Below are positions 195 to 57,941 of a stretch of 64,000 nt of DNA, piece after piece. Origin of the DNA: Patescibacteria group bacterium (GTDB lineage: Bacteria > Patescibacteriota > Patescibacteriia > 2-02-FULL-49-11); assembly GCA_041645165.1 (NCBI GenBank), contig JBAZQN010000003.1, positions 28,198 through 92,197 on the forward strand. Reading direction: 5' to 3'. A program made the translations under genes and the position numbers. Each line of letters starts with the position of its first letter. Within the stretch, counting starts at the first letter, position 1. The notes beneath the pieces are model-generated. The model did no database searches, was not told the DNA's origin, and saw only the letters and a program-made list of their open reading frames with translations.

Positions 195-1067
195 TCAATT
201 TGGGATTTTGAGTTTTGGGTATTGGTGATTATTTGTTACTTGTTTCTTGGTTATTTCGTTCAATGTCATCTTCATAACTTTAACAGGCGCATCACAACCA
301 GTAAATAATGTAAATGATAATATTGCCGTTTCTAAAAGCATTTCCGTACCAGGAATAACGAAACAACCTGCCTCTCTTGCCAATTTAGTCAAAGGCGTGC
401 TTTTGGCTGAATATACAATATCATACACCACTAATCCTTTCCGCAATAATTCCTTGCGTACGGGCGATCCTTGAACGCCATGCGGTAGGCCTATTGAGGT
501 CGCATTCACCAGAATATCGGTGGCAGCAATGAATGACGATAAATCATCAAGCGATCCCGCCGCATGCGCGCCAAATTCGCGGGCAAGCGCTTGAGCTTTA
601 TCTGCGGTGCGATTGAGAATAGACACGTAAGCATCAGCCTGCAAAAGCGCATAAACGATCGCCCGCGCAGCCCCTCCCGCGCCAAGCACGACTATGTGTT
701 CTCCTTTCACCTCGCCGATCGCGTGACGAAGCGTCGACATAAATCCCGGCGCATCCGTATTGTATCCCTTAAGCCTTCCTTCCTCGTTCACAATCGTATT
801 CACGGCGCCAATTGAGCGCGCATGATCATCAAGCGCGTCAAGAAAGGGAATCACGGTTTGCTTGTGCGGCACGGTTACATTGAGCCCCCGCACCCCGAGG
901 CTCCGCATGCCTTTGACTGCGGCTTCCACATCCTTCACCGGAAACGCGGCATAGATAAAATCCAAACCTAGCGCCTCAAACGCCGCATTATGGATCACGG
1001 GTGAAAGTGAATGATCTACCGGATCTCCTATGATGCCGCAAACTTTAGTTTTCGCGGTTATGTGCAT
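195..1067 (-). CDS. aroE: shikimate dehydrogenase
   Basis: Translation MHITAKTKVCGIIGDPVDHSLSPVIHNAAFEALGLDFIYAAF matches the AroE N-terminal substrate-binding motif; start at internal Met assumed (ORF extends to 1115). Confidence 0.85.
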   Translation of the reverse strand: MHITAKTKVCGIIGDPVDHSLSPVIHNAAFEALGLDFIYAAFPVKDVEAAVKGMRSLGVRGLNVTVPHKQTVIPFLDALDDHARSIGAVNTIVNEEGRLKGYNTDAPGFMSTLRHAIGEVKGEHIVVLGAGGAARAIVYALLQADAYVSILNRTADKAQALAREFGAHAAGSLDDLSSFIAATDILVNATSIGLPHGVQGSPVRKELLRKGLVVYDIVYSAKSTPLTKLAREAGCFVIPGTEMLLETAILSFTLFTGCDAPVKVMKMTLNEITKKQVTNNHQYPKLKIPN

Positions 1068-1584
1068 ACGACTTATGCTTATCAAACAATATATTGATAT
1101 CCCGAATAATGGCATGCGGAGCCTTGCCGCTTACATCGACCACCGCATCAGCCGCAGCGCGATACTGGGCTTCCCGTTCCTTCCATGTGCGCAGCATATC
1201 CTCTTCAAATGTTTCCGCATTGGTTAAATACGGGCGCTCCCCTTTCTCTCCCTGAAGGCGCTCCATAAGGCGCTCAACCGGCGCGTATAATAAAACCAAG
1301 AAGCCATTGATTTTCAGCCGCGTAACGCTTTCGTTGTTCATCACCACCCCACCGCCAGTCGCGATAACCGCCTTCTCGTCTCCTGCGACTTGAACAATCA
1401 CCTCAGCTTCGTGCCGCCGAAACGCATCCCAGCCCTCTTCGTTCACAAAATCCTCCAAGGAAACGCCTATGCGCTTCTCTATCAAGCTATCAGTATCCAA
1501 AAATGCATAGCCTAAAATATCAGCCAAGAGCTTCCCCACAGTTGATTTCCCGCTTCCCCGCATGCCGATTAATACTATGTTCAT
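1045..1584 (-). CDS. aroK: shikimate kinase
   Basis: MNIVLIGMRGSGKSTVGKLLA Walker A P-loop and size (179 aa) typical of AroK. Confidence 0.85.
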   Translation of the reverse strand: MNIVLIGMRGSGKSTVGKLLADILGYAFLDTDSLIEKRIGVSLEDFVNEEGWDAFRRHEAEVIVQVAGDEKAVIATGGGVVMNNESVTRLKINGFLVLLYAPVERLMERLQGEKGERPYLTNAETFEEDMLRTWKEREAQYRAAADAVVDVSGKAPHAIIRDINILFDKHKSYAHNREN

Positions 1585-1592
1585 ATTCGCAT

Positions 1593-1684
1593 GTCATTCC
1601 CGCGAAGGAGGGAATCTAGACAAAATAAACAAAAAACGATTATTTATTTTTAATTTCTGGATCCCCGATTAAATCGGGGATGAC
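1593..1684. repeat. family-1 TIR-bounded palindromic element (MITE/RPE-like), copy a
   Basis: gtcattcccgcgaagg(a/c)gggaat palindrome + AT-rich aaacaaa..tttgttt core + ggatccccgat..atcggggatgac palindrome; termini gtcattccc/gggatgac are inverted repeats. Same architecture at 9731, 11228, 12929, 48090. Confidence 0.6.
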
Positions 1685-1720
1685 AATGATGCGTGTTTCC
1701 CCAACGGGAAACCCGAATGA

Positions 1721-2980
1721 CTAGGCGTGTTTGCCAATGAGCATCCCGAGCGCTTCCCAAAACCCCGGATACGATTTGCTCACCACTTCCGCGTCCTGTA
1801 TCACCGTCTCCCCATCTGCCGCAAGCCCGGCAACCGCAAATGCCATTGCCATCCTATGGTCGCCGTGCGGATCAATCACTGCGCCTTTCAACTTTCCTCC
1901 GTGTATTTTTAACGAATCACCGTTCACCTCCGCGCGTATGCCCATCTTGGCAAGTTCTTCCGCAGGCGCGGCAAGGCGATCGCTCTCCTTCCCGCGCAGA
2001 TGGCCAATGTGGGTGATCACGCTCATACCCGGCGCAACCGCGGCAAGCACCGCAAGGGTAGGCACGAGATCAGGAACGTCGCAGCCGTCCACAGAAAATG
2101 GTTTTACTGATTTTGCGCCGCGCACCACCACTGCATTACGCTCATACTTTACTTCACATCCTACGCTGCGCAGAATGTCCAGTACTTTCCTATCCCCTTG
2201 CACAGATTCAGGCGCAAGTCCCAAAACCTTGACTTCGCCGCGAGTGACTGCGGCTGCGGCAAACCAATACTGTGCCGAAGAATAATCCCCTTCTATGGCA
2301 TACCTCCGTGCACGATACGATTGCCCCGGCTCAACCGTGAATTGATTGCCTTTCTGTTCTACCGCCACGCCAAGCTCTTTCAAAAGCGCGATCGTCAAAT
2401 CAATATACGGCCGTGAGTATATCGGCTCTTCCACTGCAATAGTCATTCCTTGCGGTAAGAAAGGTGCGATCATGAGCAGCGCAGATACAAATTGCGAACT
2501 GACATTTCCCGGCAGCCTCACCTTGCCGCCTTGCAATGCGCCTCCCCGTACCGTGATCCTCTTCGGCTCTTGGGTCACTTCTGCCCCCAACGTTTGAAGC
2601 GCATCATACAGTGGCTGCAAGGGGCGCTCTAACAATCGCACACCGCCGGTAATGATTGTTTCGCCTGGCGCCAGCGCTGCTAACGCGAGCGCAAATCGCA
2701 AGGTGGTGCCGGAAAGGCCGCATTCGAGGGGCCTTGAAGGAATACATAATGTCCCACCTGTGCCTTGCACTACCAGCTTTAATTCTTCCTGCTTTATTGA
2801 CGCGCCGAAACCCCTGCACGCGTCCATAGTTGCTTCCGTGTCATCCGCGTACAATATATTAGTTAACACAGATTCTCCTTTTGCGAGCGTTGCGAGCACT
2901 ATTGCGCGGTGCGTAATGCTCTTGGAGGGAGGCGTGACCACGACTCCTTCTATCTTTCCTGGAATTACAGTGACTTGCAT
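1721..2980 (-). CDS. aroA: 3-phosphoshikimate 1-carboxyvinyltransferase (EPSP synthase)
   Basis: KSITHRAIVLATLAKG...CGLSGTTLRFALALAAL motifs of class II EPSPS; start at MQVTVIPGK assumed (ORF to 3013). Confidence 0.88.
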   Translation of the reverse strand: MQVTVIPGKIEGVVVTPPSKSITHRAIVLATLAKGESVLTNILYADDTEATMDACRGFGASIKQEELKLVVQGTGGTLCIPSRPLECGLSGTTLRFALALAALAPGETIITGGVRLLERPLQPLYDALQTLGAEVTQEPKRITVRGGALQGGKVRLPGNVSSQFVSALLMIAPFLPQGMTIAVEEPIYSRPYIDLTIALLKELGVAVEQKGNQFTVEPGQSYRARRYAIEGDYSSAQYWFAAAAVTRGEVKVLGLAPESVQGDRKVLDILRSVGCEVKYERNAVVVRGAKSVKPFSVDGCDVPDLVPTLAVLAAVAPGMSVITHIGHLRGKESDRLAAPAEELAKMGIRAEVNGDSLKIHGGKLKGAVIDPHGDHRMAMAFAVAGLAADGETVIQDAEVVSKSYPGFWEALGMLIGKHA

Positions 2981-3087
2981 AATAAGCTTTATATTAGCGA
3001 GGATTGCTCTCACACAAACCCTCCGCAGACTCCGCCGGCATGGTGTCCGACGTAACGTCGGACCGGCGGAGGCGAGGCGGAGTGCGG

Positions 3088-3582: not shown

Positions 3583-3610
3583 TATTTGTAGCGGACTTGA
3601 ACCCAGAGGC

Positions 3611-3687
3611 GAAGGAATACCAATTTGTCGAGGATTTAGGCGCGAGGGTCGCTAGATCGCGTCCGCAGAAAAATTGTGTATTCCTGA
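3611..3687. repeat. family-2 TIR-bounded element, copy A
   Basis: gaaggaataccaattt(g/t)tcgaggatttaggcg...cgcgtccgcagaaaaattgtgtattcctga; imperfect ~17-bp terminal inverted repeats (aggaataccaattttt / aaaattgtgtattcct). Copies also at 5601-5676 and 50407-50504. Confidence 0.6.
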
Positions 3688-5317: not shown

Positions 5318-6310
5318 ACGTCCCCAACACCGTGAGGGTAACCGCTTCGTGCCTCAAGGCAGAGAGCGCCCGCGTGAGCGCTTCAGGCGAGAAGGTGTGT
5401 TCAAAATCCACATAGAACAAATATTCCCACGGCTTGCCGAGCAAAGGGCGCGATTCGACTTTGGTAAGATTCATGCCCCTGCCTGCGCACTGCACGAGGA
5501 AACGTGAGAGGCTCCCCGCGACGTGCGGAAGCGTGAGCAGGAGCGATACTTTATTTCCTTTCACCGCGGATAGTAAGTACTCACCGGCTTCAACGCGATG
5601 CGAAGGAATGCCAATTTTTCGAGGATTTAGGCGTTCAAGCTGCTTGGTCGCGTCCGCAGAAAAATTGTGCATTCTGAAGCGGGATGACTTTGGATGAGCA
5701 GTTATCGCAGATATCGGCTTTTTTGCAGGTTTTATAATAGCGCCGAAGCGGGTATAATTCTCGCGATCGGTCTCAATATGGTCGGCAACTACCGACAAGC
5801 CGTACAATGACGCCGCCACCCTGCTCGCGATTGCCGCCTCATCCTGGCGCCTACGGAGCGCCACCTCCCGCGCCGCGCCCGCGGTATCGCGGAATGATAT
5901 AACTTCTATCCAGGGATGGCGCTTAAGAAATTCCTCGCATTGGTCAAGCGCTTGAGGATGCGAGTAGACGCGCCGGATTTGGCGGATTCTTTTCGCGCCG
6001 CCCGCGTGCGCAGAATTTGCAAGCAGGTTATGGGATATGCGCAAAAATATTTCTCCGTCCAAGACAAGCGAGTGGCGTGCAAGCAAATCATAAATGCGAT
6101 GGATGGTGCCGGCGACCGAATTCTCCAAAGGCACGATACCCTGCAGAGCCTTGCCTTTTGCCACTGCCTTGAAAACCTCGTCAAATGAGGGACAAGGTAT
6201 CATCGCCGCGTGTATCCCAAAATATTTCTGTGCCGCGATTTCGCTGTACGCGCCATGTTCTCCTTGGAAAGCGATTTTATTCCGTTTAGGTAATGAATTT
6301 TTTGTCATAA
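5289..6310 (-). CDS. pheA: prephenate dehydratase with C-terminal ACT domain
   Basis: NKIAFQGEHGAYSEIAAQKYFG PDT N-terminus and VSLLLTLPHVAGSLSRFLVQCAGRGMNLTKVESRP ACT motif; start at MTKNSLPKRNKIAF assumed (ORF open to 6476). Linker contains in-frame family-2 repeat. Confidence 0.85.
5601..5676. repeat. family-2 TIR-bounded element, copy B, inside pheA coding sequence (in frame)
   Basis: gaaggaatgccaatttttcgaggatttaggcg...cgcgtccgcagaaaaattgtgcattctga; translated on minus strand as [34 protein letters not shown] within PheA linker. Confidence 0.65.
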
Positions 6311-8907: not shown

Positions 8908-9735
8908 TCAATTTATCCCTTCGCCTGCGTCCACCAACGTCCTCAAATATTTCTTTACCGCATCAATCCCTTGCCCCTGCGGCACTTTATTAAACACATC
9001 CAGCACCGCGCTGCCGACGATGGCGACATCAGCCCCCGCCTCTTTGAGTGTCTTGATATGCTCATGTGTTGAAACGCCAAATCCCACCGCGATGGACACA
9101 TCCTTATGCGCCCGAATTCTTTGAAGATGGTGCGCAAGCTCCTTATGGAGCGACGCGCGCGCGCCGGTCGTTCCTTTCTGCCCGATGAAATAGAGAAACT
9201 GGTTTGGCTTATCCAGTACTTTCTCAACTCGCTCGTCCGTGCTCACGGTGGAAAGAAACCGCATCGCTACTAAACCAGAACGCGCTGCGTGCTCCAAAAA
9301 ATGATCATGCGCTTCTTCATCAATCGGAATATCAGGAACGATGAGCCCGCTCACCCCCACCTCTGCCGCATCTCTACAAAATTGCTCGACGCCGTAATGA
9401 AAGACAAGATTAAAATACGTCATAAATAGGAGAGGTATTTTACAGTGTGCCCCAACCAAATTCTGCGCCGCGGCAAACGCATCCTTCACCTTGAATCCTC
9501 TCTTAAGCGAGACTTCATTTGCCTTCATTATCGTCGGCCCGTCAGCCAAGGGATCTGAAAAAGGAATCTGCAGCTCGATAAAATCAACGCCCGCCCCTGC
9601 CATCGCATGCACAAGCCCAATGGAATCCTGCAGCGACGGATAGCCCAAGACAATATGGGCCATGATCCCTAATCTTTTCTCCTCTTTTATTTTATTGAGT
9701 CGTGTAATAATCTTGTTCATATTCACGTGTGTCAT
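8908..9735 (-). CDS. trpA: tryptophan synthase alpha chain
   Basis: GIMAHIVLGYPSLQDSIGLVHAMAGAGVDFIELQIPFSDPLADGPTIMKA canonical TrpA motifs (start may be the Met at 9720). Confidence 0.9.
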   Translation of the reverse strand: MTHVNMNKIITRLNKIKEEKRLGIMAHIVLGYPSLQDSIGLVHAMAGAGVDFIELQIPFSDPLADGPTIMKANEVSLKRGFKVKDAFAAAQNLVGAHCKIPLLFMTYFNLVFHYGVEQFCRDAAEVGVSGLIVPDIPIDEEAHDHFLEHAARSGLVAMRFLSTVSTDERVEKVLDKPNQFLYFIGQKGTTGARASLHKELAHHLQRIRAHKDVSIAVGFGVSTHEHIKTLKEAGADVAIVGSAVLDVFNKVPQGQGIDAVKKYLRTLVDAGEGIN

Positions 9736-9833
9736 TCCCGCGAAGGCGGGAATCTAGAAAAAAAACAAACATAAAAATCGATCGTTTTCTTTTTGTTTTT
9801 TAGTTCTGGATCCCGTATCAAGTACGGGATGAC
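9731..9833. repeat. family-1 TIR-bounded palindromic element, copy b
   Basis: gtcattcccgcgaaggcgggaatctag...aaacaaacataaaaatcgatcgttttctttttgtttttt...ctggatcccgtatcaagtacgggatgac; right arm contains trpB last codons and TGA stop. Confidence 0.65.
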
Positions 9834-11119
9834 GGTAATGTTGACCTTCTCTTTAAGTATTCCTTCCAAATCTGCCCGCCGAATATATCCCCGAGAATAA
9901 ACAAATCTTTATCACCGCGTCCCGACATATTCACGACGATGATTTTTTCTTTGGATAAGGTGGGTGCAAGTTTCACGACATGCGCGAATGCGTGTGCCGA
10001 TTCAAGCGCGGCAAAGAGCCCCTCCATGCGCGCCAGAGCTTGAAATGCACTGAGCGCTTCCTCGTCGGTCGCCGACACATACTGCACTCTTCCCTTCTGG
10101 TAAAGCAGCCCATGCTCCGGCCCGATCCCCGCATAATCAAGGCCCGCAGAAATGCTATGCGTGTTTTGTATTTGCCCGTCTTCGTTCTGCAGAAAATAAG
10201 ACTTATATCCTTCAACAACCCCAAGCTTGGGATCGCGGGCTAGGCGCGCCGCGTGCTTCCCTGTTGATGTCACTCCCTCGCCCCCTGCCTCCACGCCAAT
10301 AAGACGCACGGAAGGCTCTTCCAAAAAGGTGTTGAAAATGCCTATGGCATTACTGCCGCCGCCCACGCACGCGATCACATAATCAGGGAGTTCTCTGCCT
10401 GTTTGTGCCTTTAACTGCTCCCGCACCTCAAGCCCCACAATATTCTGAAAATCGCGCACCAGAGAAGGGTAAGGGTGCGGGCCTAAAGCGCTTCCCAACA
10501 GGTAATAGCTCTCATCCACGTTCGCGATCCAGTCTTGGATGGCAGCCGTGACTGCGTCTTTTAAGCGTTTAGTGCCATGGGCAACCGGCACTACCTCAGC
10601 GCCCAATTGCTCCATCCAGAATACGTTCGGCCGCTGCCGTTCATAATCCACCTCGCCCATGTAGACGGTGCATGCAAATCCAAACTTCGCCGCGACCGTT
10701 GCGGCCGCCAGCCCATGCTGTCCCGCGCCTGTTTCTGCGATTAGGCGTTTTTTGCCCATGCGGCGAGCAAGGAGCGCCTGCCCCAGACAATGGTTCATCT
10801 TGTGCGCGCCGGTATGGTTTAATCCTTCATTTTTAATAAAAATATTCGCGCCGCCTAAGTGCGCGCTCAAATTTCGCGCAGAGGTAAGCGGCGTGGGGCG
10901 GCCGGAATAATTCTGATAGAGATCCATAAGCTCGCTCAAGAAAGTAGGATCATTTTTCGCGGTTGCATAGGCGCGCTCAAGCGCGAGTAACGCCGGCATC
11001 AAATTTTCCGGCACATACCTACCACCCAGCTCGCCAAAATGCCCCTGCGCGTCTGCATCGTACGGTGTGGAGAAAAAAATGTTCTTCACCCCGTTAGAAA
11101 TTTGTTTTGCATCTTGCAT
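9818..11119 (-). CDS. trpB: tryptophan synthase beta chain
   Basis: HFGELGGRYVPENLMPAL...HTGAHKMNHCLGQALLA...GGGSNAIGIF PLP-fold TrpB motifs; 433 aa. Confidence 0.9.
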   Translation of the reverse strand: MQDAKQISNGVKNIFFSTPYDADAQGHFGELGGRYVPENLMPALLALERAYATAKNDPTFLSELMDLYQNYSGRPTPLTSARNLSAHLGGANIFIKNEGLNHTGAHKMNHCLGQALLARRMGKKRLIAETGAGQHGLAAATVAAKFGFACTVYMGEVDYERQRPNVFWMEQLGAEVVPVAHGTKRLKDAVTAAIQDWIANVDESYYLLGSALGPHPYPSLVRDFQNIVGLEVREQLKAQTGRELPDYVIACVGGGSNAIGIFNTFLEEPSVRLIGVEAGGEGVTSTGKHAARLARDPKLGVVEGYKSYFLQNEDGQIQNTHSISAGLDYAGIGPEHGLLYQKGRVQYVSATDEEALSAFQALARMEGLFAALESAHAFAHVVKLAPTLSKEKIIVVNMSGRGDKDLFILGDIFGGQIWKEYLKRRSTLPSSRT

Positions 11120-11227
11120 AATATTTCATCCCTGTTAGAAGTCTTTCTTGTGATTTCTAACGGGGTTAATAAACAATATGACCATTTAGCCATGTATACT
11201 CGATTGCTATTCAAATTTCGATTGCAT

Positions 11228-11392
11228 CGTCGTTCCCGCCCCGTATCACGGTACGGGGTAAACCATGGCCTCGCGCAGGCGGGGCTCTTGCGGGAATCCA
11301 GACGCCGTCCTCGACCGAGATCGGGAAAAACCAAAAGAAAATCGATTTTTGCTTGTTTTTTATGTCTGGATTCCAAATCAGGTCTGGAATGA
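11228..11392. repeat. family-1 element, copy c (with nested extra hairpin module)
   Basis: gtcgttcccgcc[ccgtatcacggtacggggtaaaccatggcctcgcgcaggcgggg]ctcttgcgggaatc ... ctggattccaaatcaggtctggaatgac; same nested module as copy d. Confidence 0.6.
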
Positions 11393-11437
11393 CAATCGAA
11401 ATTGGGTTGGCAATTTATTATAACCATTACGCTATTT

Positions 11438-12073
11438 CTATTTTGCGTTTTTAATAAACAATCGTACCTTTCGCATATCTTTCACCCCCGGTTTAACTTC
11501 AACTCCGCCCGAGGCATCAATAATTCGCGATCGCGTAAACTTGATGCCATCATGGATATTTTCTGGTGTCAACCCGCCGGAGAGCACCACCTCATATCCC
11601 GCTTCAACAAGCTCACGCGCGAAGTTCCAGTCAGCACGCTTTCCGCTCCCGCCTGCCCCGTGCATTGGATTTTTTGCATCAACCAGCAGCACCTCAACGA
11701 CACTCGCGTAGTGCAGGTAATTTTGCCGCGTCACCGCTTTCCATATTATTACCCCTCGTTTTCGCAGCCGATTAACGTAGGCCGTTGTTTCATTCCCATG
11801 CAATTGCCAAATACTGATTCCCGATTCCTCGATTAACCTGCACAACCGTTCAAACGGCAGATTCACCACCACCCCCACCGTACGGGCAGAAAATTTTCTG
11901 CCCCTACACCTATTATTTACCGCCTCCTGTATCTCCCGAGCTTTCTCTCCCGTAACGCTTCTTGGACTCTTAGGAAATTCTATAACACAGCCTACAAAGT
12001 CCGCGCCTTGCCGCGCGATTTCCCGCGCCTGCGCGGGCAGTGTCACACCGCAAATTTTTACCTTTACGTTCAT
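11438..12073 (-). CDS. trpF: phosphoribosylanthranilate isomerase
   Basis: MNVKVKICGVT...position in trp operon between trpC and trpB; TIM-barrel PRAI signature KICGxT. Confidence 0.85.
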   Translation of the reverse strand: MNVKVKICGVTLPAQAREIARQGADFVGCVIEFPKSPRSVTGEKAREIQEAVNNRCRGRKFSARTVGVVVNLPFERLCRLIEESGISIWQLHGNETTAYVNRLRKRGVIIWKAVTRQNYLHYASVVEVLLVDAKNPMHGAGGSGKRADWNFARELVEAGYEVVLSGGLTPENIHDGIKFTRSRIIDASGGVEVKPGVKDMRKVRLFIKNAK

Positions 12074-12098: not shown

Positions 12099-12920
12099 TT
12101 ATTCTGCCAACGATAACGCTCTGACCATATTTACAGGATCGCCCGATTTCATCAGCGCTTCCCCCACCAATACAGCGCGTACACCAGCATGGTGCCACTT
12201 CCGTACTATTTCAGCTGATACAACGCCGGACTCGCCGATCAGTAAGGGCAAAAAATCTTTTGCCCCTACGGCACGTGTCGCCGTTCTTGCCAATCTCACC
12301 ACCCTATCCACATCCACCGTCAAATCAACCAGACTCCGCGCGTTTATCCCGATAATTTCTGCGCCAATCTTCATGGCACGTTCAAAATCCTCCTCTTGTT
12401 CCACTTCCACCAATACCTGAAGCCCAAGCGCACGGCTTAATTGAAAGAGCCTTTTTAGTTCATCGTCTTCAAGCCATCTGGTAATAAGGAGCACGAGATC
12501 TGCGCCTGCCGCCTTGGATTCATACACCTGATACTCGCTGATGATGAAATCTTTGCGCAAAAATGGCATGGAGGGGAAACTCTCTTTCAGTTGCTTCAAT
12601 TCTTCCAATGAACCGTTAAAATAATTCGGCTCGGTAAGCACGGATATGGCGACTGCGCCGCCATCCACGTACGCCTGCACCTGCGCCAGATGGTCGCGGC
12701 CGCTGATCATGCCTGCGTTCGGGCTTGCGTGCTTGATCTCACCGATAACCGCGACAGGGCTCTGCCGCCTTACGATGCGTTCCTTTATGTCAACGAGGAG
12801 CAGTGTCCGCACGGCCGCTAGCCGCTTCAAATCCTCCAAAGGAACAGCCGCCTCTTCTTTCTGAACGCGTTCCTGAATGATTGGATAAATTTTTCCTAAA
12901 AATCCATTCAAATTTTTCAT
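12099..12920 (-). CDS. trpC: indole-3-glycerol phosphate synthase
   Basis: IGEIKHASPNAGMI...AISVLTEPNYFNGSLEELK...FLRKDFIISEYQV IGPS motifs; start at ATG 12918-12920 (track ORF begins TTG 12926). Confidence 0.9.
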   Translation of the reverse strand: MKNLNGFLGKIYPIIQERVQKEEAAVPLEDLKRLAAVRTLLLVDIKERIVRRQSPVAVIGEIKHASPNAGMISGRDHLAQVQAYVDGGAVAISVLTEPNYFNGSLEELKQLKESFPSMPFLRKDFIISEYQVYESKAAGADLVLLITRWLEDDELKRLFQLSRALGLQVLVEVEQEEDFERAMKIGAEIIGINARSLVDLTVDVDRVVRLARTATRAVGAKDFLPLLIGESGVVSAEIVRKWHHAGVRAVLVGEALMKSGDPVNMVRALSLAE

Positions 12921-12928
12921 ACTCAACT

Positions 12929-13074
12929 GTCATTCCCGCCCCGTATGCCGCTACGGGGTAAACCATGGCCTCGCGAGGCGGGGCTCCGGCGGGAATCCAG
13001 ATAAATAACAAACATGAATTACCGATCGTTTTCTTTTTGTTTTATCTAGATCCCGTATCTCGGTACGGGATGAC
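12929..13074. repeat. family-1 element, copy d (with nested hairpin module)
   Basis: gtcattcccgcc[ccgtatgccgctacggggtaaaccatggcctcgcgaggcgggg]ctccggcgggaatccag...aacaaacatgaattaccgatcgttttctttttgtttt...gatcccgtatctcggtacgggatgac. Confidence 0.65.
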
Positions 13075-13099
13075 AACAGGACGTATTCGTGCCCGATAA

Positions 13100-14122
13100 T
13101 CAACTTTTCAACCTATTACTCACCTCAATAAACTTTTCCAACAACTTCGTCGCTTCCCCATTCGTCACTGCCTCTCTCGCTATTGCAATCCCTTCTCCAA
13201 CATCCTTCGCTTGCCCCGCCACATACAACGCCGCACCGCTGTTGAAAAGCACCGTATCAAGCCGCGCTCCTTTCTCTCCCGAGAGCACGGCACGGATAAT
13301 CGATGCATTCTCCTGTACATCACCACCTCTCAGGTCATTGTTCGTCGCGTGCGAAAAACCGTAATCCTGCGGATCTAAGACATACTTCTCGATAATTCCT
13401 CGCTTCACTTCATACGCGTCAGCAGTGGCCGTAGTGGTAAGCTCGTCGTGCCCATCCCCACTGCGCACTACCATTGCGTGTTCGCTGCCTAAAAGCCGTA
13501 GAGTTTGCGCAATTATCTGCATCTTCGCGGGATCGGCAATGCCGATAATTTGCCGCCGCGGCATCGCGGGATTCACGAGCGGCCCTAAGATATTGAACAG
13601 CGTGCGCACTCCAAGCTCTTTCCGCACTGGCCCCACCTTCGCAAACGCAGGGTGATACAGAGGCGCGAAGAGAAACACAATACCCGCTTCTTCTAAACAG
13701 CGGCTTGCCTGCGCGGGCGTGAGATTAATATTCACACCCAGCGCTTCCAGGACGTCCGCGCTCCCGCACGCGCTCGAGACCGCCCGGTTGCCGTGTTTTG
13801 CCACTTTCACTCCGCACGCCACGACGACCAGCGCGGTTGCCGTAGAAATGTTGAAAGTGCCTCTGCCATCGCCGCCAGTCCCGCACGTATCAAAAACTTC
13901 CGTGTGTGCGCCGGGTAAGGCTATTGCGTGGGTGCGGAGCGACCGCACAAAACCCACGATCTCCTCTGCAGTTTCGCCTTTTATGCGAAGTGCTACCAAC
14001 AATGCGGCAATCTGCGCAGGGGTATAGTCCCCTCCTATAATCGTTTCCATCACTAGCTCTGCCTCTGTTAAAGTAAAGCTCTCTCGATTGAGTATTTTGT
14101 TGAGTATTTCAGAGTATATCAT
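13100..14122 (-). CDS. trpD: anthranilate phosphoribosyltransferase
   Basis: AALLVALRIKGETAEEIVGFVRSLRTHA...DTCGTGGDGRGTFNISTATALVVVACGVKVAKHGNRAVSS TrpD signature. Confidence 0.9.
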   Translation of the reverse strand: MIYSEILNKILNRESFTLTEAELVMETIIGGDYTPAQIAALLVALRIKGETAEEIVGFVRSLRTHAIALPGAHTEVFDTCGTGGDGRGTFNISTATALVVVACGVKVAKHGNRAVSSACGSADVLEALGVNINLTPAQASRCLEEAGIVFLFAPLYHPAFAKVGPVRKELGVRTLFNILGPLVNPAMPRRQIIGIADPAKMQIIAQTLRLLGSEHAMVVRSGDGHDELTTTATADAYEVKRGIIEKYVLDPQDYGFSHATNNDLRGGDVQENASIIRAVLSGEKGARLDTVLFNSGAALYVAGQAKDVGEGIAIAREAVTNGEATKLLEKFIEVSNRLKS

Positions 14123-14697
14123 AGGCCTAAAAAATTCTTTATTAAATCCATACCCAATTCCGTCCTAATCGATTCGGGATGGAACTGAATACCCTCAATA
14201 GGAAATTGGCGATGCCGCACGCCCATGATCTGCCCGTCATCCTTTGCGAGGGCCGTAATCTCGAGGCATGCAGGGAGGCTTTCCCTCTCGCCCGCGAGAG
14301 AATGATAGCGCATGCCCTGCAAGGGACTGGCAAGACTCTTGAAAATACCTTTTCCTTCGTGCACGATAAGGCTCACTTTGCCGTGTTTGACGACTGGCGC
14401 GCGCACCACGCGCCCCCCAAACGCCGCAATAATCCCCTGATGCCCGAGACACACGCCCAACACCGGCGTCGTTTTTCCGCATTCAAGAATAACGTCTTTA
14501 CATACACCGAAGTATTGGGGGTCCGTAGGATCGCCCGGGCCCGGGGAAATGACGACATGGGTATACCCTCCTCCCCTCACGTCATCTAATGTGACTGCAT
14601 CATTCCTTTCTACCACAGGATTTCCTCCCAACATCCCCACATATTGGTAGAGGTTGTAGGTGAATGAATCGTAGTTGTCGATAATAAGTATTTTCAT
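14119..14697 (-). CDS. trpG: anthranilate synthase component II (glutamine amidotransferase)
   Basis: MKILIIDNYDSFTYNLYQYV...GVCLGHQGI class I GATase triad context; 4-nt overlap with trpD. Confidence 0.9.
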   Translation of the reverse strand: MKILIIDNYDSFTYNLYQYVGMLGGNPVVERNDAVTLDDVRGGGYTHVVISPGPGDPTDPQYFGVCKDVILECGKTTPVLGVCLGHQGIIAAFGGRVVRAPVVKHGKVSLIVHEGKGIFKSLASPLQGMRYHSLAGERESLPACLEITALAKDDGQIMGVRHRQFPIEGIQFHPESIRTELGMDLIKNFLGL

Positions 14698-14867: not shown

Positions 14868-16169
14868 TCACACTCGCGCACACGCTACCGCCTGTTGTAT
14901 TGCCCTCTGTTTATTCATAATCTCCTCATATTCCTTCTCGCACACCGAATCATACACAATCCCGCTTCCTGACCTGGTATATGCCTTGTTGCCTGAGACA
15001 AAGAGCGAACGGATCGCAATCGCAAACATCGCATCGCCATTCACGCTAAAATATCCGACAGACCCCCCGTACAAACCGCGCGGGCTCCTCTCCAATGCGG
15101 CGATTATTTTCATTGCCTCAATCTTGGGCGCGCCAGTGAGCGTGCCTGCGGGGGCGCACGCCGCCAGAACATCAAAACTGTCCAACCCTTTGCGCAGAGT
15201 CCCGCGTATTTCTGTCGATAAATGCTGCACATGGCTATAGCGCTTCACTGCCATGAGCCCTTCTACGCGCACGCTCCCGAACTCCGCCACCCTGCCGACG
15301 TCATTGCGCGCCAAATCCACGAGCATCATGTGTTCTGCCACTTCCTTTTCGTCGGATTTTAATTGCGCCGCAAGACGCTCATCCTCTTGCCTGTCTGCGC
15401 CGCGCTTTATGGTCCCGGCAAGCGTGCCAAAATGCTCAATTGCGTGCCCCTTGGTCCTGAATAACAATTCCGGCGATGCACCCAGCGCATACCTTTCCCG
15501 GAACTTCATACAATACATGTGCGGCGAAGGATTAATTTCGCGCAGGTTCCCGTACACCGCGACTGGCGATCCTGCACACTCATACTCAAACCCCACAGAA
15601 AATACAATCTGAAATGCATCGCCCCTCCCCACATGCTCTTTGATTGATGCAAACGCCTCTTGGTATTGCGGCAGCGACATATCCGAGGTGTGCGATTCCA
15701 CCTCAAAACGGGGTGTCTCACCATGTTTTTTTAGCATCTCCTTGAACTGCGCTCTCCTGTCCTTTTCAAGCGTGAAGTACCGTATTGATTGCGTGTGCTT
15801 ATCAAAAATAAAACCATCAAGGTAGAGTCCGAACTCAAATTGGGGAAAATACGGCTGCTTTTTCCCCGAGAAAGCCGGTTCAAAAAGCGCCGTGCCGTCA
15901 TATGAGACATATCCCACCAGACCGCCATGATAATGCGGCGGCAGCCCCTCGACATGGGGAAGCAGACCCTTTAACGCGGCATAATCAGTAGTGGCATCAG
16001 AAACCACTGATTGCGGCTCCGCGCCAAGGTACGTGAAACGGGAAAACTCCGATTCCGCGCCAAGCGACTCAAGGATAAAAGCGTTTTCGCAGCGCTGTGC
16101 AAGCCTTTCAAATATCTCAAATGGCTTTAAATCGGTGCTAAATTCGAACTCTTGATATTGAAAACTCAT
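14868..16169 (-). CDS. trpE: anthranilate synthase component I
   Basis: 433-aa chorismate-binding enzyme (…GTLTGAPKIEAMKIIAALERSPRGLYGGSVGYFS…) at head of trp operon. Confidence 0.9.
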   Translation of the reverse strand: MSFQYQEFEFSTDLKPFEIFERLAQRCENAFILESLGAESEFSRFTYLGAEPQSVVSDATTDYAALKGLLPHVEGLPPHYHGGLVGYVSYDGTALFEPAFSGKKQPYFPQFEFGLYLDGFIFDKHTQSIRYFTLEKDRRAQFKEMLKKHGETPRFEVESHTSDMSLPQYQEAFASIKEHVGRGDAFQIVFSVGFEYECAGSPVAVYGNLREINPSPHMYCMKFRERYALGASPELLFRTKGHAIEHFGTLAGTIKRGADRQEDERLAAQLKSDEKEVAEHMMLVDLARNDVGRVAEFGSVRVEGLMAVKRYSHVQHLSTEIRGTLRKGLDSFDVLAACAPAGTLTGAPKIEAMKIIAALERSPRGLYGGSVGYFSVNGDAMFAIAIRSLFVSGNKAYTRSGSGIVYDSVCEKEYEEIMNKQRAIQQAVACARV

Positions 16170-16285: not shown

Positions 16286-16313
16286 AAAAAACTGACCCCC
16301 TCTCGGGGATCAG
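16286..16313 (-). terminator. trp attenuator terminator hairpin + U-run
   Basis: Minus-strand gatccccgagagggggtcagttttttg; GC hairpin followed by T6, located between leader peptide and trpE. Confidence 0.6.
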
Positions 16314-16349
16314 TCAGCGTTAGGTAAGGTAAAAAATCTCTGGAATACC

Positions 16350-16415
16350 TCAAACCACTGATCTCCGAGAGAGACCAGTGCTCCACCAATTCAATTGCAC
16401 GTTCGTATATTTCAT
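16350..16415 (-). CDS. trpL: trp leader peptide with tandem Trp codons
   Basis: ATG AAA TAT ACG AAC GTG CAA TTG AAT TGG TGG AGC ACT GGT CTC TCT CGG AGA TCA GTG GTT TGA = MKYTNVQLNWWSTGLSRRSVV*; WW codons overlap first stem of alternative hairpins. Confidence 0.6.
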   Translation of the reverse strand: MKYTNVQLNWWSTGLSRRSVV

Positions 16416-16597
16416 ATTAAGTATCCACACTATAGCTCAGCATGATTTTTATGTCAAATTTCTTTCCCACTCCCCATAGTCATTGACAACTCTCTCTCTC
16501 TCTGCTTAACTGAACGTTAAAACTAATTCACAAATAGAGAGATTTTGTAATTCCTGCCCTTTGAAAACCTAGACGAAAAAATAGAGGAGAATTTGCC

Positions 16598-29120: not shown

Positions 29121-29656
29121 AGGACTATATAAAACTGACCAAGAATATAGAAATTGACTAGGTAGAATAGCACTATGGCTAATCCCTCCATAACTACTCT
29201 TATATTCTCCCACTTTCTGTCTTGATTGACAATATGTTTGGTTATACACCAAGAGCCGCAGGAAACGACTTTTACGATTCCTCCGCTGCAATTTACTCTC
29301 TTTCAGGATGGATCATTGATATTTTTAACTTAAGGCCATGACGCGGCAGAGGAAGGCATCGCAGATAATCTCGAAAAAGAGACTCCCCACCAGGAAATGC
29401 GAGGAAGGTAAGGCTTACCATGCCGTCATAGCCTGGCTCCGGTGAAAATGAAATGGCGGGAGGCTGATCGGGAGGAAGCGTCTGCGCCGTACTGGGAATA
29501 AAAAACACCCTCCGAAAAGAGTGTTCTTGTTTGATTACCAACCTGCTGTGAGGTTTTTGAGACGGAAACGGGCCTGCCGCGCCGGAGTCCAGAATCTCTG
29601 GACGCAGGTGGGTCTCTTCCTCCAGAGGCGGACAAGCGAACCGCGCAATAATTTGA

Positions 29657-29710
29657 CTCCGAGGGCGAGATTCGAATCCCAAACCAATCCGCCGCAATTT
29701 CTCTGGCTCC
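29657..29710. repeat. left copy of 54-bp direct repeat (putative attL of genomic island)
   Basis: ctccgagggcgagattcgaatcccaaaccaatccgccgcaatttctctggctcc; identical (1 mismatch) to 48205-48258 which overlaps the tRNA-Asn 3' end. Confidence 0.6.
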
Positions 29711-47999: not shown

Positions 48000-48089
48000 G
48001 AGGGTAAGGATAATCCCTCCAAGTATGCCATTACCGTATCACGCGGACGGAATTGCGCAAGTGGATATATTTTCTGTTTGTTTTCTTGT

Positions 48090-48164
48090 CCCCCGATCAG
48101 GTGAGGACAGCGTCTGGATCCCCGATCAAGTCGGGGATGACAGGTGGAGAGCGCGGGAATGACA
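48090..48164. repeat. family-1 element, partial/rearranged copy e
   Basis: ctggatccccgatcaagtcggggatgac…gcgcgggaatgaca. Confidence 0.5.
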
Positions 48165-48167
48165 AAA

Positions 48168-48207
48168 CAAAAACACCCCGTAAAAGGGGTGTTAAAAATC
48201 AAAACTC
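48168..48207. repeat. conserved hairpin module (copy 2)
   Basis: caaaaacaccccgtaaaaggggtgttaaaaatcaaaactc; compare 23741-23778. Confidence 0.5.
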
Positions 48208-48258
48208 CAAGGGCGAGATTCGAATCCCAAACCAATCCGCCGCAATTTCTCTGGCTCC
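48205..48258. repeat. right copy of 54-bp direct repeat (putative attR), overlapping last 7 nt of tRNA-Asn
   Basis: ctccaagggcgagattcgaatcccaaaccaatccgccgcaatttctctggctcc. Confidence 0.6.
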
Positions 48259-48326
48259 GAGACCGGGATTCGAACCCGGAACCAACTGCTTAACAGGCAG
48301 CTGCTCTACCATTGAGCTATCTCGGA
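48252..48326 (-). tRNA. tRNA-Asn (anticodon GTT), CCA encoded
   Basis: Minus-strand TCCGAGA-TA-GCTC-AATGGTA-GAGC-A-GCTGC-CTGTTAA-GCAGT-TGGTT-CCGGG-TTCGAAT-CCCGG-TCTCGGA-G-CCA folds as cloverleaf with 7-bp acceptor, GTT anticodon. Confidence 0.85.
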
Positions 48327-50406: not shown

Positions 50407-50504
50407 GAAGGAATACCAATTTTTCGAGGACTTATGCCTGTTTCAGACAGGCATAAGCGTTCAAGCTGCTAAATCGCGTCCGCAGAAAAATTGTGTATTC
50501 CTGA
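50407..50504. repeat. family-2 TIR-bounded element, copy C (with extra 27-bp palindrome)
   Basis: gaaggaataccaatttttcgaggac[ttatgcctgtttcagacaggcataag]cgttcaagctgct…cgcgtccgcagaaaaattgtgtattcctga in the rpoD-dnaG intergenic region. Confidence 0.6.
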
Positions 50505-50708
50505 GCGGGAAAAACCTGTGAGCAGATACAATCTTTAATGCAAAACGCTTCAATGCCGCGGGCTGACGCCCGCCGCAGTGAGTACAAAGGGGTAAACCCC
50601 GTTACCATGGGCTTGAGGTCCATGACATTGGTCGTCATTCCCCTTTTGGGTTGATGTACATTCATCTACGGTCTCAACGACTCTGTAACGCTCTAGTAAC
50701 GGGGTAAA

Positions 50709-52534: not shown

Positions 52535-52622
52535 AAAAATCCCAATGTCAAAATCCCAATGTCAAATGAAATCCCAATAACCAATATCAAATTTGACATT
52601 TGAAATTTGAATTTTGACATTA
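52535..52622. repeat. AT-rich tandem TTGACA-containing repeats (promoter-like)
   Basis: aaaatcccaatgtcaaaatcccaatgtcaaatgaaatcccaat…aaatttgacatttgaaatttgaattttgacatt upstream of dnaG; related array at 56770-56867. Confidence 0.45.
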
Positions 52623-56769: not shown

Positions 56770-56867
56770 AACTCAAATGCCAAATTAAATTCAAAATCAC
56801 AACGCCAAAACTTTGACATTTAGGCTTTGACATTTATTTGAACTTTGAAATTTGTCATTTGAACTTA
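56770..56867. repeat. AT-rich TTGACA-containing tandem repeats
   Basis: aaaactttgacatttaggctttgacatttatttgaactttgaaatttgtcatttgaac between guaB stop and add start. Confidence 0.45.
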
Positions 56868-57941
56868 TCAATAATTTGGCGCATGCTTCGTAATAAATAC
56901 TGAATGCGGGTGGCTCTCTCTCATGCCTGCATCGGTGATGCGGATAAAGTGAGCTTTCCTCTGGAGCTCGGGAATGTTGCGCGCGCCCACATATCCCATC
57001 CCGCTTCTTAATCCTCCCACAAGCTGGGTAATTATGTCCGAAAGCGGCCCCTTGAGAGGCACCGCGCCTTCCACCCCTTCGGGTACGTATTTTTTTGACC
57101 CTTTTTGGAAATATCGATCAGCGCTTTGCCCCACGTTCATGGCTCCCAAACTTCCCATACCGCGATAGGTTTTGTACGCCACGCCTTCGATGATCACTTT
57201 TTTCCCCGGCGCTTCATCCGTACCGGCAAACAGGCTCCCCAGCATGACAGCGGACGCGCCCGCGGCAAGCGCTTTCACAATATCGCCGGAGTGCCGGATG
57301 CCCCCGTCCGCGATCACGGGAATCCCTTTTTGTTTCGCGACCCGCGCCACTTCCATGATCGCGGTCAATTGCGGCACGCCTACACCAGCGACGATCCGCG
57401 TCGTGCAAATGGAACCAGGCCCTACACCCACCTTGAAGCCGTCGGCCACGCCTAAAAATGCGCGCGCCGCTTCTGCGGTTGCCATATTGCCCACAATGAG
57501 CTTTGCCTTTATTTTTTTCTTTAATGCTTTGGCAGCGGCAACGGAAGATGGCTTGTGGATATGCGCGGAATCAAATACTATCACGTCCACGCCCGCCTTA
57601 TCAAGCGCAAGGGCCCTCTCTCTATCGCCTGGCCCTACGGCAGCGGCAACCTTATTTTTGATTTTTGATTTTTGATTTTTGATTTCGTGAATCATCTTTA
57701 CCTGCTCTTCCACGGTGCAATTGCGATGCAATACCCCCATCCCCCCCGCTTCACCTAAGGCTGCGGCGAAACGGGCGTCGGTCACGGTGTCCATTGCCGC
57801 AGAGAGCAAAGGAAGGATAAGCGGCAATCCTTTGGCCGCATATGACGAAATATCAGCCTCGCGCGGGCTGATGGCAGATTCTTGCGGAATCAGGAGAACA
57901 TCGTCAAAAGTAAGACCAAACGGAGTCTTTGAGGTTTCCAT
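56868..57941 (-). CDS. guaB: IMP dehydrogenase lacking the CBS subdomain
   Basis: [11 protein letters not shown]…SAAMDTVT…GPGSICTTR…[20 protein letters not shown]…YVPEGVEG; CBS pair replaced by short [10 protein letters not shown] linker; 357 aa. Confidence 0.8.
57655..57682. repeat. (TTTTTGA)x4 heptanucleotide tandem repeat inside guaB
   Basis: tttttgatttttgatttttgatttttga encoding [10 protein letters not shown] on minus strand. Confidence 0.8.

Follow-up and report, generated by a model that had tools for sequence, protein, structure and literature searches.

Paired inverted hairpins of the NTS/SRM type in the intercistronic gaps of a Patescibacteria trp/aro gene cluster: probable non-autonomous, NIME-like composites

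The stretch of DNA analyzed here (hereafter the window) comprises 64,000 nucleotides from a Patescibacteria group bacterium (assembly GCA_041645165.1, contig JBAZQN010000003.1, positions 28,198 to 92,197 of the forward strand) and carries on its minus strand a cluster of genes for aromatic amino-acid synthesis, namely trpE, trpG, trpD, trpC, trpF, trpB, trpA, aroA and aroK. Gaps between these genes hold four complete copies (a to d) of a small palindromic element, and a fragment of a fifth (copy e) lies elsewhere in the window. An earlier note on this DNA had listed these five loci as one family resembling MITEs (miniature transposable elements with inverted repeats), and both the loci and their kinship are confirmed by the sequence and by alignment of the copies. 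We provide evidence that the outer hairpins of these elements belong with the Neisseria Transformation Sequence (NTS) and the Ssn-related motif (SRM), and we consider it likely that the elements themselves are non-autonomous units, each built from two such hairpins in inverted orientation.

In all four complete copies an AT-rich near-palindrome is enclosed by two GC hairpins, the second inverted relative to the first, and each outer end reads GTCAT. The three-module architecture described earlier thus holds for copies a and b in a simple form and for copies c and d with an additional nested module, but not for copy e, which is a fragment only. The simple form reads GTCATTCCCGC-GAAG-GCGGGAATCTAGA, followed by the AT-rich near-palindrome and then by TCTGGATCCC...GGGATGAC. 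Copies c and d have the same outer parts, with the loop of the left hairpin exchanged for a nested module of about 50 nt; as had been claimed, this module is shared, and within it an identical 21-mer (GGGGTAAACCATGGCCTCGCG) is found at 11255-11275 in copy c and at 12955-12975 in copy d. All five loci can be aligned as one family, and alignment of the copies indicates that the repeated unit is the whole composite, spacer included. At 94-166 bp per complete copy, with several copies and inverted-repeat termini of the form GTCAT(T)CCC...GGG(A)ATGAC, the elements have the shape of MITEs. Single-strand folds give three hairpins per element with z scores of -3.4 to -7.3 relative to shuffles (-3.7 for copy a folded as single-stranded DNA, ssDNA). 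Both GC hairpins are paired in 96-98% of the cells compared, and five compensatory pairs were found, two of which are double substitutions in the Uhrbacteria copy. That all four complete copies lie within the aromatic amino-acid cluster is suggestive of clustering, with p ~0.1 by a rough estimate of our own for five points within 64 kb. Between the aroA stop and copy a, at 1688-1712, there is another small hairpin, GTTTCCCCAACGGGAAAC. Beyond their GTCAT termini, copies a and c are flanked by more inverted repeats of short length, a pattern suggestive of palindromes lying inside other palindromes.

Table 1. Positions of the elements, their parts and the surrounding genes in the window
Feature	Position	Strand	Remarks
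Copy a	1592-1685		between aroA (stop 1721) and aroK (ATG 1584)
Copy a, left NTS-type hairpin	1592-1619	+	
Copy a, AT-rich spacer	1620-1656		
Copy a, inverted SRM hairpin	1657-1685	-	
Copy b	9730-9834		between trpB and trpA
Copy b, NTS hairpin	9730-9757	+	
Copy b, AT-rich spacer	9758-9805		CGATCG-centred
Copy b, inverted SRM hairpin	9806-9834	-	
Copy c	11228-11393		between trpF and trpB
Copy c, left hairpin, first half	11229-11239		GTCGTTCCCGC; halves split by nested hairpin module
Copy c, left hairpin, second half	11290-11301		GCGGGAATCCAG
Copy c, extra hairpin	11301-11325		followed by AT spacer
Copy c, inverted SRM-like hairpin	11366-11393		
Copy d	12928-13075		between trpD and trpC
Copy d, left hairpin halves	12929-12939, 12989-13000		
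Copy d, spacer	13001-13045		
Copy d, inverted SRM hairpin	13046-13075	-	
Copy e (fragment)	48068-48163		T-rich half spacer; beside tRNA-Asn
Copy e, complete right/SRM hairpin	48114-48142	-	
Copy e, lone half hairpin	48153-48163		GCGGGAATGAC
aroK	1045-1584	-	
aroA	1721-3013	-	
trpA	8908-9720	-	called start ATG 9720-9718, 10 nt from copy b edge
trpB	9818-11119	-	3' end (9818-9835) within copy b
trpF	11438-12073	-	
trpC	12099-12920	-	
trpD	13100-14122	-	
trpG	14119-14697	-	
trpE	14868-16169	-	

The NTS is a 28-nt sequence, CGTCATTCCCGCGMAVGCGGGAATCYRG, which contains the repeat dRS3 (ATTCCC-N8-GGGAAT) and whose membership is set at no more than one mismatch, while the degenerate SRM is written HGTCWYN(0-2)YYVSBRHN(0-5)WNVSBRGN(0-2)RNCYNB (Chenal et al. 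2025, Nat Commun, PMC11893778). The same study describes SsnA, a 94-aa GIY-YIG nuclease that binds the hairpin as ssDNA, on one strand only, and cuts a few nt upstream; binding and cleavage of hairpin ssDNA were shown there just for the Ssn proteins of Neisseria and Wolbachia, and ssn genes were reported to be frequently flanked by SRMs in a layout like that of an insertion sequence (IS). In copy b the left arm (TGTCATTCCCGCGAAGGCGGGAATCTAG) has a single mismatch to the NTS and so counts as an NTS, and that of copy a has two mismatches and falls outside the definition. The SRM pattern occurs five times in the window, each time in an arm of an element (the right arm of copy a among them); 100 dinucleotide shuffles gave 0.25 occurrences on average and never more than 2. 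In copies a and b the left arm additionally fits dRS3 exactly, and the right arms are ATCCC... variants that do not. Because the left arms are close to the NTS and five arms fit the SRM pattern, we take the outer hairpins to be NTS/SRM motifs, one per strand, pointing inward with GTCAT outermost. The inverted repeats that the earlier note saw at the ends of the elements are present, although they are not idiosyncratic to this family but are the pan-bacterial NTS/SRM hairpin. A literature search for the exact hairpin sequence found no paper containing it.

The breadth of this hairpin became apparent from a scan for its exact 24-nt form (GTCATTCCCGCGAAGGNGGGAATC), which with one genome per species gave at least 120 loci; what follows applies to the matches listed. 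Their hosts comprise Bacteroidota, Chloroflexota, Planctomycetota, Nitrospirota, Patescibacteria, all classes of Pseudomonadota and a Rickettsia endosymbiont, and the hairpin is found in every genomic context across phyla. Neighbouring SRM pairs are mostly convergent with GTCAT facing outward (44 of 57), with spacers of 9-117 nt between them. A small GIY-YIG open reading frame (ORF) is present at eight of the loci (PF01541, E ~1e-15 to 1e-17 for the four ORFs scanned), three of which have the form SRM-ssn-SRM (L077, L081 and L030), and the distance between hairpins is 306 nt in the two such units seen as adjacent pairs. This nuclease of about 95 aa is the sole gene seen between such termini elsewhere. 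Two of the eight loci, both from Patescibacteria (L062 and L079), contain a GIY-YIG gene plus a composite like those of the window. An inverted hairpin pair thereby shows itself as the usual unit across phyla, with the same geometry as SRM-ssn-SRM.

Comparison with relatives distinguishes filled from empty sites. TrpB of the window has the same sequence as a protein annotated in a 'Patescibacteria group bacterium' metagenome-assembled genome (MAG), and its nearest named relative is Ca. Uhrbacteria with 82% identity. Copy b is found at the same place in L130, L131 and the Uhrbacteria contigs L123, L124 and L128, whose TrpB proteins are 91%, 85% and 82% identical to that of the window, respectively. 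It is missing in L125 (TrpB 93%) and L126 (83%), in which the trpB-trpA gap contains a different 'TCAAA/TTTGA' palindromic filler. The site of copy a is empty in L126, in which a single bp separates aroA from aroK, and in L123, in which the two genes are fused; at the site of copy c, trpF and trpB overlap (ATGA/ATGG) in L123, L126, L130 and L131; and the trpD-trpC gap of L123 and L125 is without copy d. Since the genes of relatives overlap, abut or are fused at these sites, the comparison supports insertion of the elements into a formerly compact operon. By this comparison copy a is an insertion, and copy c with about 155 nt of accompanying DNA is an insertion specific to the window's lineage. 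A metagenome scan with a lineage-specific spacer pattern returned two matches, both of which are the Uhrbacteria trpB-trpA junction already known. DNA identical to that of the window is also present on ENA and Logan contigs; one of the latter (L002) has its two ends within copies c and b, where an assembly would be expected to break at a repeat. With regard to the trpB-trpA gap, some hairpin-forming filler is present in all five lineages examined. Low-complexity 'ATTTGA/TCAAAT' palindromic repeats are located in the window at 52591-52622, 56836-56867 and 57656-57687, and similar repeats fill the trpB-trpA gap of L125 (11290-11400) and L126 (1570-1680).

The elements also affect the coding sequences that they adjoin. 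The trpB stop codon (TGA, 9818-9820) and the preceding codons for P-S-S-R-T (9821-9835) are located in the right hairpin of copy b. Orthologs without the element end in ...YLKRKS(K/Q/AG/EL), whereas those with the element end in ...RRS-TL-PSSRT (window), -AL-PSSRT or -IPS-SSRT; because the element-free proteins end earlier and the element-bearing ones carry the tail, comparison of the C-termini shows, in agreement with the earlier note, that the last TrpB codons and stop come from copy b, and the refutation proposed in that note thus turns out in the claim's favour. In Uhrbacteria the hairpin is mutated, the stop is gone and TrpB reads through to 444 aa. A further proposal, that the element termini donate an ATG just before, or fused to, the annotated starts of aroK, trpA and trpC, is not supported. 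The called starts of these genes are 8, 10 and 8 nt from the element edge, and the ATG within GGGAATGAC precedes them by 13, 15 and 13 nt, respectively. Although the longest trpA ORF begins at this terminal ATG (9735-9733), which is in frame there (MTHVN-MNKII), the ATG looks like an incidental by-product of the GGGAATGAC terminus: neither aroK nor trpC has it in frame, the trpA called on the identical ENA contig does not make use of it but starts at the downstream ATG (270 aa), and in the Uhrbacteria trpA ortholog it is out of frame. At the other end of trpB, the longest ORF starts 10 codons before the common start of its relatives (MKNIFF...), an extension that covers 11087-11119 (minus strand), and the position of the relatives' start is a GTG at 11089-11087. 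This N-terminal extension of the ORF probably results from the copy c insertion that broke the trpF-trpB overlap.

Copy b is conserved far above the neutral rate, and its hairpins are kept by compensatory changes. Between the window and L130, L131 and L123, identity is 94%, 90% and 87% in copy b as compared with 71%, 34% and 50% at 4-fold degenerate sites of trpB (with Fisher p values between 3e-7 and 1e-18), figures that are to be read with the caveats that the sequences are few, that the AT-rich spacer is of low complexity and that indels are ignored. The non-coding part of copy b alone is 88-93% identical. Copy b is furthermore the best-conserved 100-nt block of the trpB-trpA stretch, and the neighbouring coding blocks are ordinary. 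A recent recombination tract as the source of this conservation is excluded because the adjacent 100-nt coding blocks are conserved no more than the remainder of the gene. Homogenisation of copies within the genome is likewise unlikely, since orthologs of copy b are closer to each other than copy b is to copies a, c and d. The conservation leaves room for a selected role, which could be that of a DNA-level target for Ssn or of an RNA-level hairpin.

Taken as a whole, we think it likely that the elements are units of two inverted NTS/SRM hairpins, similar to the NIME repeats of Neisseria, that are non-autonomous and have spread as composites in an Uhrbacteria-like Patescibacteria lineage. Their layout of hairpin, AT-rich spacer and inverted hairpin is that of SRM-ssn-SRM with the nuclease gene swapped for about 40-50 nt of AT-rich DNA, and it is because of this common layout that they are best read as non-autonomous copies. 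Whole composites would have landed in the intercistronic gaps of the trp/aro cluster. By analogy with Neisseria and Wolbachia, whose Ssn proteins behave in this manner in vitro, an Ssn encoded elsewhere in the genome would bind each hairpin on the strand that reads GTCAT and would nick ssDNA a few nt outside the element. Spread and retention of the elements may then stem from the interaction with Ssn or from recombination between copies. As side effects on the operon, TrpB is longer by 7 residues, trpF and trpB no longer overlap, and stable hairpins lie 8-10 nt before three starts.

A number of observations weigh against non-autonomous spread driven by Ssn. Ssn is not known to mobilise DNA, and the sole role tested is restriction of transformation in Neisseria (PMC11893778). 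A search with GIY-YIG query sequences and then with a profile built from actual hairpin-neighbour ORFs found no ssn or GIY-YIG ORF, either in the window or in some 12 kb of additional flanking DNA (L127, L132 and L133). There are just four complete copies and one fragment in the approximately 76 kb covered, and the right-arm hairpins (ATCCCGTA.../ATCCCCGA...) fit the degenerate SRM pattern only and not the NTS. Target-site duplications, which the earlier note had proposed to look for, were not found at the element borders in any convincing form, the best flanking matches being within the range of shuffles, and no convincing long repeats were found in the flanks either. Lastly, a selected function would account for the conservation of copy b no less well than a selfish element does. 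An exception among the flanking matches is a 12-nt direct repeat, ATTGTTTATTAA, at 11169-11180 and 11455-11466 (21 nt at 81%), on either side of copy c. This repeat is weak in that 9 of 500 shuffles reach it, is not adjacent to the termini and has one copy that is the trpF 3' end; it may have arisen by duplication of part of the former trpF/trpB overlap.

That the SRM-spacer-SRM composite is functional and selected, and not junk, seems to us rather unlikely. The pattern in this naturally DNA-scavenging lineage is that the copy between trpB and trpA is nearly unchanged, including its spacer, while synonymous sites of trpB are saturated, and that further copies fence each cistron of the aromatic amino-acid cluster. 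An 'NTS-gene-NTS' arrangement, guarded by Ssn and controlling how these genes are replaced by recombination, would agree with this pattern. So would the non-autonomous half of an ssDNA transposon driven by a GIY-YIG enzyme, a kind of mobile DNA for which we know of no demonstrated example.

The possible, if doubtful, alternative that survives best is that the elements, or copy b at any rate, serve mainly as selected RNA modules between the cistrons of a polycistronic trp/aro mRNA, comparable to the repetitive extragenic palindromic sequences and bacterial interspersed mosaic elements (REP/BIME) of E. coli. These modules would block 3'-5' exonucleases, set processing sites or tune downstream translation, and the match to the SRM would reflect their origin only. 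The greater conservation of copy b relative to flanking coding DNA, the compensatory changes that keep its hairpins, the short distance at which three copies end before a start codon, the other palindromic filler in the trpB-trpA gap of relatives without copy b and a stable RNA fold (z = -3.8) all agree with this explanation. So does the common orientation of all four complete copies relative to transcription, although such an arrangement has a chance probability of 1/8. However, close relatives without copies a, c and d have compact and presumably functional operons, the hairpin is found across phyla in all genomic contexts, and Neisseria Ssn is inactive on RNA (PMC11893778).

We regard as improbable a second alternative, in which the composites were built up through recombination by an IS110/Piv-type enzyme, as used by filamentous phages that integrate at dRS3 in Neisseria, or through IS1111-like insertion. 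There are precedents in that dRS3 is a documented target of phage integration, NIME arrays have been proposed as recombinase sites and IS1111 targets a palindromic MITE (QMITE2/REP) in Coxiella; in addition, fragment e is a neighbour of tRNA-Asn and marks one edge of a putative island of 18.5 kb with 55-nt repeats at its boundaries. Against this, no copy is interrupted by an IS110-type or phage element, no such recombinase was seen next to the copies (none was searched for), and recombination of this type leaves unexplained why the repeated unit is the whole composite with a conserved AT spacer.

Very improbable, in our judgment, is that the elements are classical MITEs, that is, internally deleted copies of a transposase-encoding IS that moved by cut-and-paste, as for QMITE1/2 of Coxiella burnetii. 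The 'MITE-like' label of the earlier note does capture their shape, as they are small with inverted termini, occur in several copies, show filled and empty sites and, like QMITEs, overlap a gene 3' end. It does not extend further, as no copy has a target-site duplication, no transposase or cognate autonomous element was found in the available sequence, the termini are those of the pan-bacterial SRM hairpin and not IS-specific inverted repeats, the gene seen between such termini elsewhere encodes the GIY-YIG nuclease and no transposase, and the host is not Coxiella.

Finally, a role in regulating the trp genes by terminating or attenuating transcription, as might be suggested by stable hairpins within a trp operon, is scarcely credible given that no copy has a terminator-like site (a GC stem then a T run), a promoter/terminator consensus scan of the elements gave background level, no Rfam family reaches its threshold and the operon already has a classical leader peptide and terminator upstream of trpE.

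The trp attenuator upstream of trpE occupies 16290-16457 on the minus strand. It comprises a promoter-like TTGACA-17-TATAGT at 16457-16429, a leader ORF of 21 codons at 16415-16350 (MKYTNVQLNWWSTGLSRRSVV) with tandem Trp codons and a terminator at 16315-16290 formed by a GC hairpin then a T run, and has no Rfam match. At tRNA-Asn (48252-48326, minus strand), the 3' part of the gene is repeated 18.5 kb away (29656-29710 and 48204-48258; 55 nt, 98%), and G+C falls to 0.42-0.44 at 36-44 kb. The region between these repeats looks like an integrated island with att-like repeats, and the SRM fragment e adjoins its tRNA-proximal boundary. The window also contains a second, unrelated 78-nt repeat family (GCGAAGGAATACCAATTT...CGCGTCCGCAGAAAAATTGTGTATTC) at 3606-3683, 5597-5674 and 50423-50500 (63-83% identical). 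A possible third repeat with GGGGTAAACC...CCGTTACCATGGG is found at 50560-50645 and in L132 at 9860-9930; it has short strings in common with the nested module of copies c and d and ends beside GTCATTCCCC.

These results tie an anonymous 'MITE-like' repeat to a defined protein-DNA system, that of Ssn and the NTS/SRM, and extend this system to Patescibacteria. The genomes of this group are small and its members are believed to rely on the uptake of DNA, so that a nuclease specific for ssDNA, with targets in the genome, could matter to them. The trpB-trpA junction furthermore provides a natural example of an element that rewrites the C-terminus and stop of a conserved enzyme and is then itself conserved above the neutral rate. 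Current understanding is not overturned by these results, which instead sharpen a hypothesis already raised by the authors of the Ssn study.

For completeness, we compare the elements with known systems. QMITE1 and QMITE2 of Coxiella burnetii are small palindromic repeats that slightly overlap gene 3' ends (Wachter et al. 2018, PMC5896051), but, in a comparison by description only, they differ by their direct repeats of 2-11 nt, none of which were seen at the window elements. Identity with these elements was rejected, as the host is a Patescibacteria MAG and both the direct repeats and the association with IS1111 are absent. REP/BIME with RAYT (TnpA-REP), and IS200/IS605, likewise involve hairpin repeats that are recognised as ssDNA by a small dedicated nuclease, and REP/BIME are also intergenic, often intercistronic and combined as mosaics. 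They are nevertheless different in sequence, their nuclease has an HUH/Y1 fold as opposed to GIY-YIG, and the window elements are without a GTAG head. Among RNA families, an Rfam scan of the elements gave nothing at gathering score, with only WsnRNA46, FtrB and TD-1 below threshold. The consensus of WsnRNA46 (Wolbachia small RNA 46, RF02625) is GTCAT-hairpin-GGATCCAGAAA, an AT-rich stretch and CTGGATTC-hairpin-GGATGAC, and because it reads as an inverted pair of SRM-type hairpins, this family may derive from the same repeat class. Copy a aligns to it end to end (match at 1576-1699, minus strand) at 26.1 bits, far below the gathering threshold of 65.3; the window copies are thus by score not members of the family. 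The FtrB (Francisella) match at 9713-9801 (plus strand) is similarly sub-threshold, with 27.3 bits against a gathering score of 66.

The closest likenesses are to the NIME and NTS/SRM systems. NIMEs have the structure dRS3-RS-dRS3, in which 20-bp dRS3 repeats flank a low-GC repeat of 19-214 bp (Parkhill 2000, Bentley 2007, PMC1797815). The window elements share with them the ATTCCC-N8-GGGAAT core and the arrangement of GC-rich inverted hairpins around a low-GC spacer of about 50 nt, which gives a high-low-high 'wave' in G+C profile. The window is without long arrays, but isolated dRS3-RS-dRS3 units are known in Neisseria too (PMC1797815). The right arm is, however, a variant hairpin that is not dRS3 (ATCCCGTA...TACGGGAT), and NIMEs have been stated to be Neisseria-specific (PMC1797815). 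With the NTS/SRM the elements have in common an intergenic location, clustering around a gene set, and a directional motif with GTCAT at its 5' end, a GC hairpin and ATCYAG. They differ in that copy b overlaps a coding 3' end, as compared with 2% intragenic NTS in N. meningitidis, and in their host, since Patescibacteria, also known as the Candidate Phyla Radiation (CPR), are a group unmentioned in that work (PMC11893778). They also differ in that the unit is a fixed composite, with two different hairpin variants as arms and a conserved AT-rich CGATCG spacer. The motif itself is already known, and what is added is its CPR host, the rule of the paired unit and conservation above the neutral rate.

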